This document shows positions 3,272-28,000 of a stretch of DNA of 32,000 nucleotides, in pieces. Where the stretch lies: assembly GCA_023252195.1 (NCBI GenBank), contig JAHEXI010000017.1, positions 18,604 to 50,603 of the forward strand, written 5' to 3'. Within the stretch, counting starts at the first letter, position 1; every line of letters begins with the position of its first letter. The notes below the pieces were generated by a model. The model made no database searches. It was not told the origin of the DNA and saw only the letters and a program-made list of their open reading frames with translations. Source of the stretch: Pseudonocardiales bacterium. Its GTDB lineage: Bacteria; Actinomycetota; Actinomycetes; Mycobacteriales; Pseudonocardiaceae. A program made the position numbers and the translations under genes.

Positions 3272-3758
3272 GAGATTGTCACCAGTCTCGGCGTGAGAGC
3301 CGAGTCTCCGATCATCGCAGACGGCGCGCCGTGGGGCCGACGAACTCGGAGTGCCTCCGACACCCCCCGTGGTGGCCGCGGCGTGGTGCCGCTCGGTGGG
3401 CACCACCTGGGCCCTGGAGCTGCACGAACTCGACGCTGGCACCGCGCGGGGGACGGTCGTGGCCTGGATCAGCTCCGGAGTACCTGTCACCCAACCAGCG
3501 CCGGACGCGCTGGCCCGCGACCTGCTTGCCGCGGGCTGCGGCTGCTCCGCGATCCGTCCGCCGGCCCCGGCACCCGCAGCCGGCGTCGCATTGGCTACGT
3601 CTGTGCCCACACCGAGCCGATCACAGGGACCGACCCCGCCACCCGCGCCGCGCTGCTCCTGGCCCTTGCCTGGGGCCCGGCCACCACCGAATCCGACCCA
3701 TCGACCAACCACACCGCCCGGATCACCGCCGTTGATTCCCGGCGTCCGGCCCCCGATT

Positions 3759-4793: not shown

Positions 4794-5066
4794 ATGACCG
4801 AACGGTTCGATGCCCACAACATCTCTATAGACGAGCAGCTGGCCCACGAAGGCGCGTGCGCCCAGATCCATCTGCCTTCCGGCCGGACCTGCGGGCTGCC
4901 CCTCCACCACCACGGAAGCTGCCGATTTCTTCACCTCACGGATTCCCCCGCTCCCGCTCGCCGTCGCCACCTGGGCGCAGCCCTGGGAGCTGAGTTCCCA
5001 CCCGCGGCCGAAGGTCCGATCGCGCCGCAGGCGGCAGGCGGGCAGCATGAGGGCAGAGTCCTCTAG
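4794..5066 (+). CDS. Hypothetical small protein with a Cys/His cluster (orphan)
   Basis: ATG 4794 lies 9 nt after AGGA (4781-4784). Product MTERFDAHNISIDEQLAHEGACAQIHLPSGRTCGLPLHHHGSCRF..., with a C-x12-C-x7-HHH-x2-C pattern. Third-position GC is moderately high in the first ~45 codons. I recognised no family. Confidence 0.35.
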   Translation: MTERFDAHNISIDEQLAHEGACAQIHLPSGRTCGLPLHHHGSCRFLHLTDSPAPARRRHLGAALGAEFPPAAEGPIAPQAAGGQHEGRVL

Positions 5067-18702: not shown

Positions 18703-19109
18703 AGTCGTGCTCCTCTTCTCGAAACGTTCAGGGGCCGATGAGCAACGGCTTCGCCTTGGCCTGCGTCCACGCCCGGTGCGCCCCACTGGCCGCCGTGGCG
18801 GCAGGAGGTCTGCAGTCCTTCGGTGCAGAAGTCGCAGATGTTGTCGACCCACACGAATGGCGCGACCACGACGTCGCCGGGCTTCAGCGCGGACACCTCC
18901 GAGCCGACGTCCTCCACGACGCCGAGGAACTCGTGGCCCATGCGACTGCCCTCCTGCGAGGCGGGCATGGAGCCATACGGCCACAGATCGCTACCGCAGA
19001 TACACGACCGCAGCACTCGCACCACGGCATCGGTGGCCTCACGCAGCTTCGGGTCGGGGACATTCTCCACTCGCACATCACCGGCGCCGTACATCACAGT
19101 CGCTCGCAT
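18699..19109 (-). pseudogene. Zn-dependent alcohol dehydrogenase, N-terminal ~120 aa only (truncated)
   Basis: [45 protein letters not shown]...[15 protein letters not shown]...[39 protein letters not shown]. The frame then runs into the AKR ribosome-binding region and stops (..[14 protein letters not shown]). The Rossmann domain is absent. ATG 19109 is preceded by GAAAGGAAA. Confidence 0.8.
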
Positions 19110-19123
19110 GGCTTTCCTTTCAG

Positions 19124-19441
19124 TCAGGATCGGTCTTGGGCGGGCGCGGCGTGGTACTCCTCGTCGGTGACCAGCTCGCCCCACTCGGTCTCGGCGCCCT
19201 GGCCCTCGCGGGGGCCCTCCCACATAGCTAGGTGGGTCATGAAGTGGTCCGGGGCGGCGCCGTGCCAGTGCCACTCGCCCGGAGGCGTGTGGACGGTGTC
19301 GCCGGGACGGATCTGGATGACCTCGCCGCCCCGGGACTGGATGAGGCCGACGCCTTCGGTGACGTGCACGGTCTGCCCGTTGACGTGTGCGTGCCAGGCG
19401 TTGCGGGCGCCGGGCGCGAAGCGCACCACGTTCACGCGCAT
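19124..19441 (-). CDS. Cupin-domain protein; conserved N-terminal segment lies upstream in frame but without a start codon
   Basis: MRVNVVRFAPGARNAWHAHVNGQTVHVTEGVGLIQSRGGEVIQIRPGDTVHTPPGEWHWHGAAPDHFMTHLAMWE carries the cupin motifs G(x)5HxH...G(x)5PxG(x)2H. In-frame upstream sequence ...QPSVKAPAETFSGDAWYDVIAKGER looks like the normal N-terminus of this family. The only upstream ATG (19543) is in another frame, and a TGA (19540-19542) closes the cupin frame. Confidence 0.6.
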   Translation of the reverse strand: MRVNVVRFAPGARNAWHAHVNGQTVHVTEGVGLIQSRGGEVIQIRPGDTVHTPPGEWHWHGAAPDHFMTHLAMWEGPREGQGAETEWGELVTDEEYHAAPAQDRS

Positions 19442-21035: not shown

Positions 21036-21607
21036 TCAGGCTGCCGTCCATGAGGGGTCGCGCCCGCTGAGGCCGATGACGCGGTCGAGGAGTGGGGCGT
21101 CGGCAGGGACGTCGACGACCGGGCCGAAGAGGCCTTCGCGGCCGCCCCCCTCTGTGGACATCATGGATACAACTCCATGGATGTCTGCAGCGCACGGGGG
21201 TCGCACGCGAACGGCTGTTGGCTGGCGCGGGCGACGTCCCAGCCGTGGATAACCAGCTCATTGAGGGCGATCTTGCCTGCTATGGCGGCGGGCAGGTCGA
21301 TGCCGCCGGCTTGGGTCATCCCCTCCCATGCGTTGGGGTTGCGCCACGCGTCGGCGAGTGCGGCGAGTTGCTTGGGAATGCGGGTGCGCCAATCGTCACC
21401 CAGCCGGGAGGCGTCTCCGGAGGGGTCCTGTGACGTTGCCGATCCGACGTCCTTGGTGGCGGCGGCGGTGAAGGCCTGCGACAGCCCGCTGACATGGTCG
21501 ATGAGATCGCCGAGTGTGTACGCGGGGCACGGCGTAGGTTGTGTGAACTGGTCGGCGGTAAGTCTCTCCAGCAGGCTCGACATCTGAGCAGCCGCCGACG
21601 GCGACAA
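21036..21607 (-). pseudogene. TIGR03086-like / mycothiol-dependent maleylpyruvate isomerase N-terminal (DinB-like) metal-binding protein, frameshifted near the 3' end
   Basis: ...MSSLLERLTADQFTQPTPCPAYTLGDLIDHVSGL...NELVIHGWDVARA...DPRALQTSMELYP* stops at 21161-21163. The family's usual ending continues in another frame: (V)SMMSTEGGGREGLFGPVVDVPADAPLLDRVIGLSGRDPSWTAA* (stop 21036-21038). Confidence 0.7.
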
Positions 21608-21653: not shown

Positions 21654-22209
21654 ATGTCCGACGGTGACGCGGAGGCAGATAAGCACACCGAGCAGCGGCC
21701 CATCTGGGCCACCGAAACCGTCCGGCTCGTCGAGCCGCAACCGGCGTGGGCCAGCCTCGCCGAACACTTCATCGGCGAGATCCAAGACCTGCTCGGCCAT
21801 GTGTTGAACAGCGAGGTACTCCACATCGGTTCCACCGCGATCCCCGGACTACCAGCCAAGCCGGTGATCGATCTCCAAGCACTCTCCCAAGACCCGGACA
21901 CCACCATTGCCAACGCCCACGGCGAGCTGACCGCCCGGTCCTGGTTCTTTGTTCCGCGCCGACTCGACCAGCGGCCATGGCGCTGGTTCATCGTCCGCGC
22001 CGCCGACACCGACTGGCCCACCTACACCTCATGCAACCCGGCCAACGCCGCTGGCACGAACAGCTCCTATTCCGAGACCGCCTGCGCACCGAGCCTCCCT
22101 GACCGACGAATACGCCGCCCTGAAGACCCGAGCCGCCGCTGAGCACCCCGACGACCGCGAGGTCTACACCCAAGCCAAGACGGAATTCATCCGCCGGGTC
22201 CTCAGCTGA
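21654..22209 (+). pseudogene. GrpB-family (UPF0157) protein with at least two frameshifts
   Basis: Frame a: ...VRLVEPQPAWASLAEHFIGEIQDLLGHVLNSEVLHIGSTAIPGLPAKPVIDLQ... Frame b: RLAHLHLMQPGQRRWHEQLLFRDRLRTEPP. Frame c: SLTDEYAALKTRAAAEHPDDREVYTQAKTEFIRRVLS*. Switches lie near 22000-22015 and 22094-22099. Confidence 0.75.
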
Positions 22210-22627
22210 CCGGGTACATCCCCGCTTCCTCGATCGGGGCGTCGCCGCAGGACCGAACGTTCCCAGGCTGGAAATACAGACCACTCGATCAACGAAGCCT
22301 GCCAGTACTACACCCCAAAGCGGCGGAGGTGCACGCGCTTGAGGTGCAGGCTGTCGATGAACGCCGCGGTCCGCGCGCTGGGCGATGGATCGCTCAGTCA
22401 GTCCGCGCCGTTACGGCAACGGAGACCAAGACTCCGAGGACAAGCGGAAAAACGTGGGGGCAGGCTACGAGCGAGGGCTTCTAGGTCGTGACGGCGTGCG
22501 AGCGCAGCTCGGAGCGATGCCCTCCGGTTCCAGCGGCGCGCGGAGGTGCCACTGACAGCAACTTTGCGTAGTTGCCGCAGGTGGCACCCTCTGCGCCGCG
22601 TTCGGGGAGACCCTAGAGGGAACGACG

Positions 22628-24346
22628 TCACCTGTCCGCGAGCTCGATGATCGGGTACTTGGGCTGCCACATGGCCTGGTGCACTTGCCGGACCGGGTCG
22701 TCCACGGGCACCTGCGCCAGCCCCTGCTCGACCGCGGCAACCGCGACCGCGACAGCTACGGCGGCGGAGACGGTGCGTAGGTCCTCGATCGGCGGCAGCA
22801 GCGGCGCTCCGGGAGCGGTAGCGTCCGACAGTCGGGCAACGGCGTCCGCGGCCGCGGCGATCATTGGTTGGTTGATCCGCCGGGCACGGGCCACCGTGAC
22901 GCCGAGGCCGAGTCCGGGGAAGACCAGGGCGTTGTTGGCCTGGGCGATGCGATGGGTGATCCCACCGCGGAGGACCGGCGGGAACGGGCTGCCGGTGGCG
23001 ACCAACGCCCGGCCGCCGGTCCACCGGATCAGATCCTCGGGCAGCGCTTCACATTTCGACGTCGGATTGGACAGCGGCATGATGATCGGCCGCTCGGTGT
23101 GCGCGGCCATCTCCCTGATGATGGTTTCGGTGAACACGCCGGCCTGCGCCGAGGTGCCGATGAGCATGGTGGGGCGTGCGGCTGACACGACGTCGGCGAG
23201 GGTGACCGTGGTGCCCGTATCGGTGGACCAGCCGGCCACCTCTGCCGCGCTCCGCGCGTAGGGCAGCTGGAAGTCGCGCAGGTTGGGTGTGTCGTCGACC
23301 AGCAGGCCCCGGCTGCCCAGGGCGTAGAAGCGCGCGGTGGCCTCGGCGCGGGACAGTCCGTCGCTGATCATGATATCGCGCATCATGTCGGCGATGCCCA
23401 GCCCGGCGGTGCCGGCGCCGTGGATGACCACCCGCTGGTCGCGTATCCGGGTCCCCGCCGCCCGGACGGCGGACAACGCCGCGGCCAGCACGACCGCGGC
23501 GGTGCCCTGCAGGTCGTCGTTGAAGGTGCACACCTGGTCGAGGTACTTGTTCAGAATGCGTCGCGCGTTGCCAGCGGCGAAGTCCTCCCAGTGCAGCAGC
23601 GCGTTCGGGAAGAGCCTGGTGGCGGCGGTGACGTAGGCGTCGACCAGATCGTCGTAGCGCTGGTCGCGGACTCGGGCGTGCCGCGCACCGAGGTAGGTCT
23701 CGTCATCGAGAAGCGCCACATTGTCGGTGCCCGTGTCCAGCACCACCGCCAGCACCCGGTGTGGGTGGATGCCTGCCGCGGCCGTGTAGACCGCGAGCTT
23801 GCCGATCGCGATCTCGATGCCGCCCACGCCCTGGTCGCCGATGCCCAGGATGCCCTCCGAGTCGGTAGCCACGATCAGGTCGACGTCCTCGGCGTCCATG
23901 CCACAGTTGCGCAAGGACGCCTCCACGTCCTCCGGCCGGTCGACGGAAAGGAACACCCCGTGCGGGCGACGGAACTCATAGCTGAACCGCTCGATCGCCA
24001 GCCCGACCGTCGGGGTGTAGACCACCGGCAGCATCTCCTCGATGTGCTCGCACAGCAACCGGTAGAACAGCACCTCGTTGCGGTCCCGCAGATTGGCCAG
24101 GTACACCCAGCGGCGCAGATCGTCGGCCTGCGCGCGGTACTGGCCGTAGACCCGCCGCACCTGGCCGTCCAACGTGCTCACAGCGGTGGGCAGCAGGCCG
24201 GTCAGGGCCAAGGCCTCGCGTTCTTCGAGGGTGAACGCCGTCCCACGGTTGATCGTCGGGCTGGTTAGCACGGCGTGGCCCCTCGCGTGGATGCGCGCTA
24301 CCACACCGTCAGCGGTTGAAAAGAGCTCGTATCGCGGCTGGTGCAT
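22628..24346 (-). CDS. mez: NAD(P)-dependent malic enzyme
   Basis: MHQPRYELF...TSPTINRGTAFTLEEREALALTGLLP...VVYTPTVG...ATDSEGILGIGDQGVGGIEIAIGKL...FNDDLQGTAAV...IHGAGTAGLGIA...PIIMPLSNPTS. ATG 24346 follows AAGGAGAGG. The 51-codon upstream extension in the track was rejected. Confidence 0.93.
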   Translation of the reverse strand: MHQPRYELFSTADGVVARIHARGHAVLTSPTINRGTAFTLEEREALALTGLLPTAVSTLDGQVRRVYGQYRAQADDLRRWVYLANLRDRNEVLFYRLLCEHIEEMLPVVYTPTVGLAIERFSYEFRRPHGVFLSVDRPEDVEASLRNCGMDAEDVDLIVATDSEGILGIGDQGVGGIEIAIGKLAVYTAAAGIHPHRVLAVVLDTGTDNVALLDDETYLGARHARVRDQRYDDLVDAYVTAATRLFPNALLHWEDFAAGNARRILNKYLDQVCTFNDDLQGTAAVVLAAALSAVRAAGTRIRDQRVVIHGAGTAGLGIADMMRDIMISDGLSRAEATARFYALGSRGLLVDDTPNLRDFQLPYARSAAEVAGWSTDTGTTVTLADVVSAARPTMLIGTSAQAGVFTETIIREMAAHTERPIIMPLSNPTSKCEALPEDLIRWTGGRALVATGSPFPPVLRGGITHRIAQANNALVFPGLGLGVTVARARRINQPMIAAAADAVARLSDATAPGAPLLPPIEDLRTVSAAVAVAVAVAAVEQGLAQVPVDDPVRQVHQAMWQPKYPIIELADR

Positions 24347-24360
24347 GCACCTCTCCTTGT

Positions 24361-24395
24361 CGTCCGCAACCAGCGCGAGCCCGCTGGTTCGGACG
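24361..24395 (-). promoter_or_regulatory. Strong stem-loop in the mez 5' leader, directly abutting the Shine-Dalgarno
   Basis: Plus-strand CGTCCG(C)AACCAGCG-CGAGCC-CGCTGGTTCGGACG forms a 14-bp stem with one bulged C and a 6-nt loop. On the mez mRNA it ends 14 nt before the ATG, immediately 5' of AAGGAGAGG. Confidence 0.35.
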
Positions 24396-24483
24396 CCGCC
24401 CGTAAGTGTGGCCGACGCCGCGCGGGTCGGCGAGCCTGGCAACCACCGAAGTTGCGCCCTACTCCTTCTAAAACACATCATAG

Positions 24484-24512
24484 TTGACCAAATAGCCATA
24501 GCGTTCTATCGT
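24484..24512 (+). promoter_or_regulatory. Sigma-A-like promoter candidate (TTGACC - 17 nt - TATCGT) reading toward the small ORF and gdh, with an ATAG-N4-CTAT inverted repeat over the spacer/-10
   Basis: TTGACC at 24484-24489 and TATCGT at 24507-24512, with ATAGCGTTCTAT at 24498-24509. This is the AT-richest patch of the mez/gdh divergent region. Confidence 0.35.
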
Positions 24513-24656
24513 TAGTGCATCAAGTCATTAGAAGGGCCCCGACGGCCAGGAGGGCAGAGATGGGTCAGCGCACTCACAGAGGCGCCAGTCCAACATCACG
24601 AGTCCGCGGACGCGCCGGATCGGTTCAAGGCCCAGGAAAGAAGAGGAGAGAACGAT

Positions 24657-24848
24657 ATGAGGATCACGGAAATCTTCGAACTTGGCGGTTTTGGCCGAGG
24701 CCATGACCACGGCGACAACTGTGGTGATAGGGGCCACCGGGGTCACGGTGGCCAGCGGGATCACGGGGATCGCGACGATCGTGGCAGTTACCGGGGTGAT
24801 AGGGGCTACTGGAGCGGCGGCTACAGAGATGGCAGGGATGGGTACTAA
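24657..24848 (+). CDS. Orphan 63-aa Gly/Arg/Asp/His/Tyr-rich small protein
   Basis: The ATG lies 7 nt after GAGGAGAG. Product MRITEIFELGGFGRGHDHGDNCGDRGHRGHGGQRDHGDRDDRGSYRGDRGYWSGGYRDGRDGY*. The frame was chosen on SD/ATG context, because the region is stop-free in 4 of 6 frames. Confidence 0.55.
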   Translation: MRITEIFELGGFGRGHDHGDNCGDRGHRGHGGQRDHGDRDDRGSYRGDRGYWSGGYRDGRDGY

Positions 24849-24849
24849 G

Positions 24850-24866
24850 CCCTTGGGCGGCAAGGG
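24850..24866 (+). terminator. Short hairpin immediately after the small-ORF stop (possible weak terminator or attenuator)
   Basis: CCCTTG-GGCGG-CAAGGG has a 6-bp stem and a 5-nt loop and starts 2 nt after TAA. No U-tract follows. Confidence 0.3.
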
Positions 24867-24905
24867 ATCGATACCAAGGCTTGTGGCTTAGAGTCCGCAG
24901 CTGAG

Positions 24906-25049
24906 GTGATCCCGCAGGACCCCGCGACCGCCACCGCGATCCGGGCGTGCCCGACCGCGATTCTGCTTCTGATCTTGGTCGCCGTGCTCGGACTCGTGGT
25001 GGCTGTTGCGGTGCTGCTAGCCGACCGAGTGTGGAGCCAGCAACGATGA
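24906..25049 (+). CDS. 47-codon micro-ORF encoding a single-pass transmembrane peptide; stop overlaps the gdh start
   Basis: From GTG 24906: VIPQDPATATAIRACPTAILLLILVAVLGLVVAVAVLLADRVWSQQR*. It has a 22-residue hydrophobic core. By hand count third-position GC is 38/47 in this frame versus 13/33 in the gdh frame over 24947-25045. The TGA at 25047-25049 overlaps the gdh ATG at 25046-25048. It is below the 60-aa cutoff of the ORF track. SD is weak. Confidence 0.45.
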   Translation: MIPQDPATATAIRACPTAILLLILVAVLGLVVAVAVLLADRVWSQQR

Positions 25050-28000
25050 CCGCCACAGCGCCCACCCCTCGTTCTGGAGCCGAGGCCGATCGACCACGAG
25101 ACTTGGCCGACCCCGCGTCGTGCAGCGCTCTCGCCGAGCTGATCGTGCTCTACTACCGGCTCGTTCCTGCTGAGGAGCTGAGCACCGCCGAACCCGGAGA
25201 ACTCGCGGCAGCGGTCCAGTCGCATCTGGCCCTGGCCGCGGACCGGGTGCCCGGTCGGGCGCTGGTTCGCCTGCTCAACCCCACCCGTGCCGAGGACGGC
25301 TGGAGCTCCCGCGACATGGTGGTGCAGATCGTCACTGATGACATGCCCTATCTGGTGGACTCGGTGGTCGCCGAGCTAGCCCGGATCAACGTTTCGGTGC
25401 GGCGCCTCGTGCATCCGATCGTCGTGGTCCGCCGCGATCTCACCGGAACCCTGCAGGAAGTACTCACCGGCTCTGATCCAGACAAGGCGCCCACAGATGC
25501 GCTGGTGGAGTCCTGGATGTATGTCAACGTCGATCGCATCACCGATCCCGACCGGGCCCGGCAGGTGCAGCAGCGGCTGCTGACCGTGCTCACGGATGTG
25601 CGTGAGGTTGTCGAGGACACCGAGGCGATGATCGGCGCTGCGTGCGCCCTGGCTGACGCACTGGACGCTGCGCCGCCGCCGCTGCCGGCTCAGGAGGTGG
25701 CCGAGGGTACCGCCCTGTTGCGCTGGCTGGCCGACGAACATTTCGTTTTTCTCGGCTACCGGCGCTACGAGCTGCTCTGGAAATCGACCGATGACCCGGC
25801 GGACGGCACGGCGCCCGCGCTGCGGGCGGTGCTCGGGTCCGGGCTCGGTGTGCTGCGCAGGGACAGCGTTGCCGCCAAAGGTCTCCGCACCGGACCGGAC
25901 GTCGACCCGCTGGCCCGGAATCTGCTGGTGCTTACCCAGGCTAGTGCGCCCGCCACCGTCTACCGGCCGGTCTACCCGCACTACATCGGGGTCAAGATCT
26001 TCGACGAGCGTGGCGCGGTCACCGGGGAGCATCGCTTTCTGGGGGTGCTGGGCACCACTGCGCTGCATGCGGACGTGCTGGGAATCCCGGTGATCGGCCG
26101 CCGGGTCCGCGAGGTGATCCATCGCGCCGGTGTCCCTTTCGATTCCTACTCCGGGCAGCGGATGGTGGAGGTGCTCCAGACCTACCCGCGGACCGAGCTG
26201 TTCTCCACTGACATGGACTCGCTGTACCAAACGGTGACCGGGGTGTTGTCCCTGGCGCAGCGGCGCACGGTGCGGTTGTTCTGCCGGCGTGATCCCTACG
26301 GCCGGTTTTTCTCCTGCCTGGTCTACCTGCCGCGCGATCGCTATACCACCGCCGCGCGGCTGGCCATGCAGGACGTACTGCTGCGCGATCTGCACGGCAC
26401 TGAGCTGACCTACAGCGCGCAGATCGGCGAGTCCGTGCACGCACGGGTGCACTTCACCGTGCACACCGACCCGGATGATGGTGGCGTGCCGGCGGCACCC
26501 GACGTCGGCGCGATCACCGAACGCCTGGAGCACGCCGTTCTTACCTGGGATGATCGGCTCCTCGACGCTGCCTCGACGAGCGGCGCAGCCACTGCGGAAC
26601 TTGTGCAGCGTTATTTGACGGCTTTCCCGCAGGCATATAAGGAAAACTTCGACGCTGCCACCGCGCTGGCCGACATCTCGCGGCTGGAGGCGCTGGCCGC
26701 ACCAGACGGTCTGGACTTGTGCTTTGAGATCCCGGAGGGCGGCGAGCCGGGGGAACGGCGGTTCAAGGTCTACTTGGCGGGGCAGCGGATCACCCTGTCC
26801 CAGGTGCTGCCGGTGCTACAGCAGCTGGATGTCGAAATCGTCGACGAGCGGCCCTACCAGGTAATCCGCGGCGACAGGGTGCACTGCTGGATCTACGACT
26901 TCGGGCTGCGGTTGGATGCCACGCTGTTGGAACAGCTGGCCGGTCAGGCCGTCGAGGACGTGGAGCGGCGGTTCGGCGAGGCGTTCGTGGCTGGCTGGCG
27001 CGGCGCCTGCGAGGTGGACCGCTTCAACGCCCTGGTGTTGCGCGCCGCGCTGGACTGGCGCCAGGTAGCGGTGCTGCGGGGTTACGTCCGCTATCTGCGG
27101 CAGGCCCGAAGCCGCTACAGCGAGCGCTATGTCGAGGAAGTGCTGCTCGCGCACAGCGGCATCGCCGCTGCCCTGGTCGGCCTGTTCGAGGCCCATTTCG
27201 ATCCGGCGCGCGATGGCGCCACCCGAGACATCAGGCACGACGAGCTAGCGGTGCAGATCACCAGGATGATCGACGAGGTGGCCGGGCTGGACGCCGATCG
27301 CATCCTGCGCGGCCTGTTCACCCTGGTACGCGCCACGCTGCGGACCAACTACTACATCCGTGACGCCGAGGGTGCCCCTCGGCACTACCTGGCGCTCAAA
27401 CTCGACCCGGGGACGGTGCCGGAGCTGCCCGAGCCGCGGCCGGCGTTTGAGATCTTCGTCTGCTCCCCCCGGGTGGAGGGTGTGCATGTGCGCTTCGGCC
27501 CGATCGCCCGTGGTGGGCTGCGCTGGTCGGATCGCCGGGAGGACTTCCGCACGGAGGTGCTCGCCTTGGCCAAGGCGCAGACGGTGAAGAACGCCGTGAT
27601 CGTGCCGGCCGGAGCCAAGGGCGCCTTCGTGGTCAAGCGCCCACCGGCGGCTACCGGTGACCCCACGCTGGACCGCGAGGCACTCCAAGCCGAGGGCATC
27701 GCCTGCTACCGGATGTTCGTATCAGGATTGCTCGATCTCACCGACAACCTGGTAGCCGGCCGGACTCGGCATCCCGACCAGGTGGTGTGCCACGACGGCG
27801 ACGACAGCTACCTGGTCGTCGCAGCCGACAAGGGCACCGCGACGTTCTCCGATATCGCCAACGAGGTCGCCGCGTCCTACCAGTTCTGGCTGGGCGACGC
27901 GTTCGCCTCCGGCGGCTCGGCAGGCTATGACCACAAGGCCATTGGGATCACCGCCAGGGGTGCCTGGGAAAGCGTCAAGCGGCACTTCCGCGAACTGGGC

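Follow-up and report, generated by a model that had tools for sequence, protein, structure and literature searches.

The 47-codon open reading frame (micro-ORF) that immediately precedes gdh, the gene for a large NAD-specific glutamate dehydrogenase, in the 32-kb stretch of DNA analysed here (the window; 67% GC) is most likely a commonplace gene remnant rather than a new regulatory peptide. Comparisons with related loci indicate, with a probability that we put at roughly 80%, that it is the leftover 5' end, coding for the signal anchor, of a truncated gene for a small membrane-anchored cupredoxin. On this reading, a module lies between the malic-enzyme gene and gdh, in which a promoter-like site is followed by a conserved small ORF, a spacer and the cupredoxin gene. 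Everything past the signal-anchor helix has been lost in this species, and the break at about 25017-25025 abuts the ancestral gdh leader with its Shine-Dalgarno (SD) sequence; the frame of the relic stays open by chance from an upstream GTG and ends in a near-universal TGA. The features are listed in Table 1, with positions counted along the window.

Table 1. Features of the region between the malic-enzyme gene and gdh
Feature	Position	Strand	Basis
Malic-enzyme gene, divergent, 572 aa	22628..24346	-	Same neighbour in L001 (96%) and L002 (94%)
Promoter-like site TTGACC-17-TATCGT, left edge of the putatively imported module	24484..24512	+	Sigma-70-like match
Shine-Dalgarno sequence GAGGAG, 8 nt upstream of the small-ORF ATG	24643..24648	+	Read from sequence
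Small ORF, 63 aa, MRITEIFELGGFGRG...GGYRDGRDGY, stop TAA	24657..24848	+	Homologues, conserved stop
Non-coding spacer from small ORF to probable cupredoxin relic, containing the 6-bp stem 24850-24866	24849..24905	+	Homology
47-codon micro-ORF, frame left open in a probably truncated gene	24906..25049	+	MAG annotation, no SD-like motif
Probable relic of cupredoxin signal-anchor coding region, ATATAIRACPTAILLLILVAVLGLVVAVAV	24921..25016	+	tblastn, profile, DNA identity
Strong RNA hairpin predicted within the relic, roughly -59 to -61 kcal/mol	24921..25011	+	Folding against shuffles
Junction of probable cupredoxin relic and ancestral gdh leader	25017..25025	+	Ends of two homologies
Ancestral gdh leader with its own SD, GGAG 25033-25036	25026..25045	+	Cross-genus motif conservation
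gdh, large NAD-specific glutamate dehydrogenase, 1623 aa	25046..29917	+	Pfam GDH_ACT1, GDH_HM1, GDH_ACT2

The micro-ORF and its annotation

Read from the window sequence, the frame opens with the GTG at 24906 and closes with the TGA at 25047-25049, encoding a 47-aa peptide with a hydrophobic run of 22 residues (AILLLILVAVLGLVVAVAVLLA) and a Kyte-Doolittle maximum of 3.46 over a 19-residue span. The earlier note on this DNA had described the 47 codons with a 22-residue hydrophobic helix, the overlap of the TGA with the gdh ATG at 25046-25048, and a third-position GC of 38/47 in this frame against 13/33 in the gdh frame over 24947-25045; frame and helix were found again on re-reading, the overlap is present as ATGA, and a recount gave the same fractions. 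GC at codon positions 1/2/3 was 0.77/0.47/0.81 in the micro-ORF and 0.72/0.47/0.85 in gdh, and T occupied the second position in 20 of the 47 codons, with a T frequency of 0.167 in the window. The coding periodicity of the micro-ORF frame is not due to chance; this coding signature would be there because it was inherited from the former gene. None of the SD-like motifs GGAG, GAGG and AGGA was present 5-12 nt upstream of the GTG.

At least five NCBI MAG records list the micro-ORF (47 aa) under the name 'hypothetical protein'. It is intact in at least five conspecific sequences, in which three variants are known, namely I2T, A14T and one synonymous SNP. Four conspecific NCBI MAG contigs (~99% identity) all carry the identical micro-ORF, the TAA and the small ORF, so the locus is not an assembly artefact. 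The window comes from an uncultured member of the Pseudonocardiaceae whose nearest gdh relatives are MAGs, the cultured genera being just 57-64% identical. Elsewhere in the window, segments at ~19036-19307, 21160-21607, 22007-22307 and beyond 30058 did not align to the conspecific loci L082 and L083, which are ~99% identical otherwise; these segments are strain-variable or indels, and may be linked to the 'pseudogene load' named in the earlier note.

Searches of general collections yielded little. The micro-ORF, the 63-aa ORF and an alternative-frame ORF had no match in Pfam or NCBIfam, the sole Rfam match within 24300-25200 (E<=1) was a meaningless miRNA, and a literature search retrieved nothing relevant to the micro-ORF/gdh locus. 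A HMMER search with the 66-aa open frame against 1.84e9 representatives matched the micro-ORF itself (P0121) and P0122 alone; the latter, a repetitive protein of 594 aa, was dismissed as a homologue, the match being compositional.

Bacterial gene callers can annotate gene remnants as short hypothetical proteins, and the micro-ORF would resemble such pseudogene fragments in being an open frame whose coding signature is inherited; its sole oddity in that company, the 4-nt overlap with gdh, is explained by the Met-Thr start of gdh. The deposited annotation would thus need correction, since the 47-aa "hypothetical protein" is probably a pseudogene fragment and its conserved neighbour, the 63-aa ORF, is uncalled. 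A functional micro-protein should not be called from a transmembrane helix, a coding signature and an overlap of 4 nt with the next gene, even together, as all of them can be inherited or incidental.

Homology to the signal anchor of small membrane cupredoxins

Used as a protein query, the read-through product of both small ORFs gave a single weak match, P0001, a 159-aa cupredoxin whose N-terminus (MRIMKIFELGGYGRGHDNGG...TSTATAIRPRVTVILLGVLVVVLGLVVGSSG, followed by the cupredoxin domain) carries both the beginning of the 63-aa ORF and the micro-ORF 'ATATAIRACPTAILLLILVAVLGLVV'. The search seeded with P0001 returned more than 120 clusters of 110-185-aa PF13473/PF00127 proteins, chiefly from Pseudonocardiaceae metagenomes, in which one group has a lipoprotein-type N-terminus (M..TAIRLRPTAIVLTMLVAVLGLVLGCGGG) and a second an N-terminal extension of the form MRIxEIF[ED][LF]GG. 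A metagenome scan with P0001 found at least 12 loci; among those listed, one, L086, covers the N-terminus.

When 11 members of this family were used as tblastn queries against the window, the matches were confined to 24657-25028. P0001 gave one alignment spanning this whole interval, through the TAA (E 5e-10), while P0006 was 77% identical to the relic over 26 aa, and P0054 and P0051 were 77-78% identical to it. A profile of the pre-domain regions of 82 family members, with the window left out, matched the frame 24849-25046 at E 4.5e-10, the runner-up among 13,172 six-frame segments drawn from the window and 80 high-GC loci having an E value of 0.13, which points to specific homology and not to transmembrane composition. 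Both methods placed the signal-anchor region of the family (TAIRxRPTAILLxxLVAVLGLV) in the micro-ORF frame, and the 80-nt helix region showed 71-79% DNA identity to L104, L103, L102 and L081. No match to the mature domain, the cupredoxin beta-sandwich with its copper ligands, was detected by tblastn anywhere in the window. That the frame arose by chance in GC-rich sequence that never coded for protein has next to no probability: high-GC genomes do yield many long spurious ORFs, and there are many around this locus, but such a frame would have neither the run of T at second codon positions nor the specific protein and DNA homology to the N-termini of one protein family.

The likeness to the small membrane-anchored or lipoprotein cupredoxins (P0001, P0006 and P0054) thus lies in the signal anchor, 'TA(I/V)RxRPTAILLxxLVAVLGLV', at both the protein and the DNA level, and it continues upstream, where the MRIxEIFELGG element, the SD and the promoter-like site of cupredoxin genes in Pseudonocardiaceae MAGs also match the window. 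By comparison with the intact proteins, annotated as 'plastocyanin' or 'cupredoxin domain-containing protein', the window lacks the domain, the copper ligands and the Gly/Ser linker. The usual partner genes are likewise missing, the relic abutting gdh instead. In the intact family a DUF2231-Rieske protein lies downstream in L081, L098 and L101, an HTH_20 regulator upstream in L099 and L100, and two Ferritin_2 genes upstream in L102; none of the intact members in the loci examined adjoined gdh or a malic-enzyme gene. The DUF2231-Rieske fusion that follows extended-type cupredoxins has 283 aa (L081:5682-6533, L098:3580-4431 and L101:1714-2565), which suggests that cupredoxin and fusion protein form a small membrane electron-transfer pair.

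At the DNA level, 24483-25014 formed a single homologous block with L104 (blastn, 76.4% over 535 nt, E 7.5e-107) and was collinear with L106, L107, L103, L081, L098, L101 and L102. The order within the block is promoter-like site, strong SD, small ORF, spacer and signal-anchor coding region, and its left edge coincides exactly with the promoter-like site. On the right, homology to L104 stops at 25014-25016, and the match to the sequences upstream of gdh in L025, L056 and L015 begins at 25020-25026; the junction is therefore placed within about 9 nt. As to the beginning of the former gene, in the alignment of the native cupredoxin start region (GACGGTAAAG...ATG in L102 and L103) the ATG of L103 falls on GAC in the window, and the 20 nt preceding the relic align to intact genes at a random level, with 'GTGATCCC' resembling 'GTGATCCCATG' of L102. 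An extension of the homology to 'VAVTDLAD' just before the first beta strand, for which 'VAVLLAD' of the window would need an in-frame deletion in the linker, was suggested by the stretch GCTGTTGCG common to the window and L101; the match was without statistical support, and the L104 alignment explains those bases better.

L104 and L106 are the only relatives found in which an intact small ORF is followed by this relic. L104 reads CTG ATC CCG TAA GAC and thus lacks a start codon and stops at codon 4; L-to-P and G-to-R changes have ruined its helix (DPATATAIPARPTALLLPALVTGRAPVVAVAV), beyond which lie frameshifted scraps of the linker and of the first beta strand. In L106 the sequence is GTG ATC CCG TAA, and the helix has deletions of 9, 14 and 11 nt. 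With the intact genes as outgroup, 3 lineage-specific changes were counted in the 80-nt helix region of the window and 11 in that of L104 (one-sided binomial estimate, p ~0.03). On the simplest reading, the gene of the window would have been functional for longer and truncated recently, and the low number of changes would also fit residual constraint.

The hydrophobic frame was sought upstream of gdh in 80 related loci, 57-93% identical across the first 400 residues of the protein. No conserved transmembrane micro-ORF was found there by tblastn of the peptide (absent in 80/80), and blastn with 24400-25130 detected nothing conserved in these 80 loci upstream of ~25020. The closest sister species, L001 and L002, which share 93% gdh identity and the same divergent malic-enzyme neighbour, are without the relic region. 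Alignment of L001:3953-4001 and L002:1760-1882 with window 24347-25129 showed that the module and roughly the first 26 gdh codons are lost in these two, and just ~13-120 nt are left between the malic-enzyme gene and gdh. In the window itself, the mechanically called malic-enzyme ORF (22628-24499, minus strand, 623 aa) is over-extended, the start conserved in relatives being 24346.

The 63-aa small ORF and its stop codon

The ORF upstream of the spacer is, judged from its homologues, a real and conserved small gene. Rich in His, Gly, Arg, Asp and Tyr, with 8 His, 11 Asp and 1 Cys in its product, it has separate homologues in P0123 (61 aa), P0124 (64 aa), P0130 and a 77-aa ORF in L103, the first two retrieved from 5.8e9 proteins at E 1.2e-14 and 1.6e-6, respectively. 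Conservation among the homologues runs from MRITEIFELGGFGRG to GGYRDGRGGY. The family signature consists of an N-terminal MRI[TS]EIFELGGFGRG, a C-terminal GGYxDGRxGY followed by the stop, and a strong SD, all of which the window ORF matches; the SD region is conserved in L103, L104 and L106. Family copies at 24657-24848, L103:546-779, L104:3604-3789 and L106:936-1130 were located, with sizes of 61-77 aa. The lengths of indels within the small ORF (6, 3 and 42 nt) are divisible by three, unlike those in the spacer and the 5' UTR. The exact 63-aa sequence is absent from the protein collection, and the gene is uncalled at this position in the conspecific MAG loci.

The earlier note had correctly placed the 63-aa ORF in frame with the micro-ORF, with the TAA at 24846-24848 and 19 sense codons between them, and a 6-bp hairpin just past the TAA (stem CCCTTG/CAAGGG, 24850-24855 and 24861-24866). 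One of its three options took the two ORFs as halves of a ~130-aa tail-anchored protein split by a nonsense mutation. The part of this option that survives is that of a gene relic tied to the upstream ORF, with P0001, P0011 and P0016 as fused forms; the nonsense split and the tail anchor do not. A stop occupies the position of the TAA in L103 (TAG), L104 and L106 (TAA), following a shared GGGTAC, and the TAA is common to all conspecific MAGs examined; no sense codon was seen there in any of these sequences. On the contig of the intact cupredoxin P0006 (L103), a separate 77-aa ORF (MRITEIFELSGYGGG...GGMGGY) ends with TAG at the equivalent position and is followed by a 65-nt spacer, after which the cupredoxin starts in a different frame. 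The spacer of the window is homologous to those of L103, L104 and L106, with indels of 1 and 2 nt, and it is because of such indels that small ORF and cupredoxin are in different frames in L103. By these comparisons the TAA is the natural, conserved stop of the small ORF and not a nonsense mutation, and the frame that it shares with the relic in the window is a one-in-three coincidence.

A single ~130-aa tail-anchored gene, whether recently split by a nonsense mutation or read through at the TAA, is accordingly very improbable. The shared frame would suit it, as would P0001, P0002, P0011 and P0016, which encode the MRIxEIFELGG N-terminus and the helix in one ORF, and its read-through product would resemble tail-anchored membrane proteins in having a single helix near the C-terminus. 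However, the stop before the helix is conserved in identical position in L103, L104, L106 and all conspecific MAGs, the intact cupredoxin of L103 lies in another frame, and the spacer indels are not multiples of three. Moreover, every intact homologue has a secreted cupredoxin domain on the C-terminal side of the helix, which makes the helix a signal anchor and not a tail anchor, so that the lesion in the window would be the loss of what lay downstream of the helix.

The fused forms would link the small ORF and the cupredoxin functionally without making the window TAA a lesion. They point to an undescribed small-ORF family that is joined to cupredoxins in some genomes and apart in others, and the small ORF is intact where the cupredoxin has decayed. 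This actinobacterial, cupredoxin-linked family of small proteins is perhaps worth a short follow-up. In P0003, P0004, P0084, P0089 and P0095 the long N-terminal extensions (e.g. ...VAWVGTRSLWSKAQSQIRGLKLAFNGHG...) resemble an alternative-frame read-through of small-ORF/spacer DNA, so that the starts of these cupredoxin gene models are probably set too far upstream.

The gdh leader, the promoter-like site and possible uses of the relic

The gdh start at 25046 is also called in the conspecific MAGs, and the N-terminus MTATAPTPRS is common to L025, L003 and L011. Upstream of it, the leader motif 'cgagYgtggagccRRcaacgATGAC' is kept across genera (L015, L025, L056, L021, L035 and others), and gdh would use this conserved SD of its own. 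The overlap that the earlier note had taken as a sign of coupling is common in relatives and incidental: ATGA occurs in 49 of 55 related gdh loci with an ATG and SD-like start, whatever lies upstream, and is near-universal because the second gdh codon encodes Thr or Ser (ACC or AGC). The ORFs ending at this ATGA in related loci range from 0 to 362 aa and are never hydrophobic, with a maximum KD19 of 1.19 against 3.46 here. The overlap is therefore uninformative.

The promoter-like site was the sole sigma-70-like match in 24300-25150, where shuffled sequences averaged 0.1. Its hexamers and flanking bases recur ahead of the small ORF/cupredoxin in L104, L081 and L098 as conserved sequence, and again in L002, where TTGACT-18-TATCAT stands directly upstream of the shortened gdh. 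The element as a whole (TTCTAAAA..GTTGACnAAA..GTTCTAnCnT) was located at 24466-24512, L002:1821-1850, L104:~3425-3465 and L081:~4870-4910. In L002 it lies right against the gdh start, its -10 overlapping an ATG, which suggests that gdh is driven there by a captured promoter, perhaps by way of a leaderless mRNA. In the window, a search of 24300-25150 for terminator-like sites returned none. Since none separates 24512 from gdh, and since the L002 element stands before gdh, the module promoter may drive gdh transcription in this clade, on an mRNA that would also carry the small ORF and the relic. These signs of gdh behind the module promoter are perhaps worth a short follow-up as well.

The relic is predicted to fold into a strong hairpin, with z = -5.3 against dinucleotide and z = -6.2 against mononucleotide shuffles; it is long, rich in G-U pairs and lies 35 nt upstream of the gdh ATG. 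A conserved RNA element was ruled out, given that L102, an intact homologue, forms a comparably strong fold (z = -4.9) in which other bases are paired, and that no strong fold was seen in L103 and L086. The hairpin is probably a by-product of composition, with Thr/Ala codons opposing Val/Gly codons.

The two remaining options of the earlier note, an independent membrane peptide and an upstream ORF controlling gdh translation, lose their ground with the absence of the frame from the 80 loci, its breakage in L104 and L106 and its loss in L001 and L002; a frame that relatives do not conserve or that stops interrupt is what the note itself had named as refuting. A version in which the relic has been exapted, either as a 47-aa membrane peptide translated from GTG 24906 or as an upstream ORF that hands ribosomes to gdh at the ATGA, seems unlikely on the comparative evidence. 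Such a use would fit an ORF and helix that are intact across conspecific MAGs, the 3 changes as opposed to 11 in the L104 relic, the 4-nt overlap of stop and start, and a module promoter that leads to gdh with no terminator. Nevertheless, GTG 24906 has no SD and is replaced by CTG in L104, gdh has its own SD, conserved across genera, and the ATGA simply follows from a Met-Thr/Ser start; L104 and L106 have the frame interrupted, sister species that retain gdh have it deleted, nothing similar occurs in the 80 gdh loci, and the region would be sequestered in the hairpin of ~-60 kcal/mol.

Hydrophobic ORFs whose stop overlaps the next start are familiar from translationally coupled small membrane proteins, upstream ORFs and leader peptides, such as KdpF, CydX and attenuator leaders. 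The likeness is one of geometry alone, whereas the micro-ORF, unlike these, is not conserved with its downstream gene, has no SD and is broken or absent in relatives. Less likely again is that gdh has captured a foreign unit, with a tricistronic mRNA, transcribed from the small-ORF/cupredoxin promoter, for the conserved His/Gly/Arg-rich small protein, the relic ORF and gdh, on which the relic would serve as a coupled leader; if true, a regulatory upstream ORF setting gdh output would have been born from the signal peptide of a dead gene.

Different genera of Pseudonocardiaceae (L015, L025, L056, L035, L037 and L050-L057) share with the window the stretch 'gtggagcc' of the gdh leader, some 10 nt upstream of the ATG. 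It translates as 'SVEP' in the gdh frame and could mislead start calls, and in the window GTG 24947 yields a spurious gdh ORF of 1656 aa.
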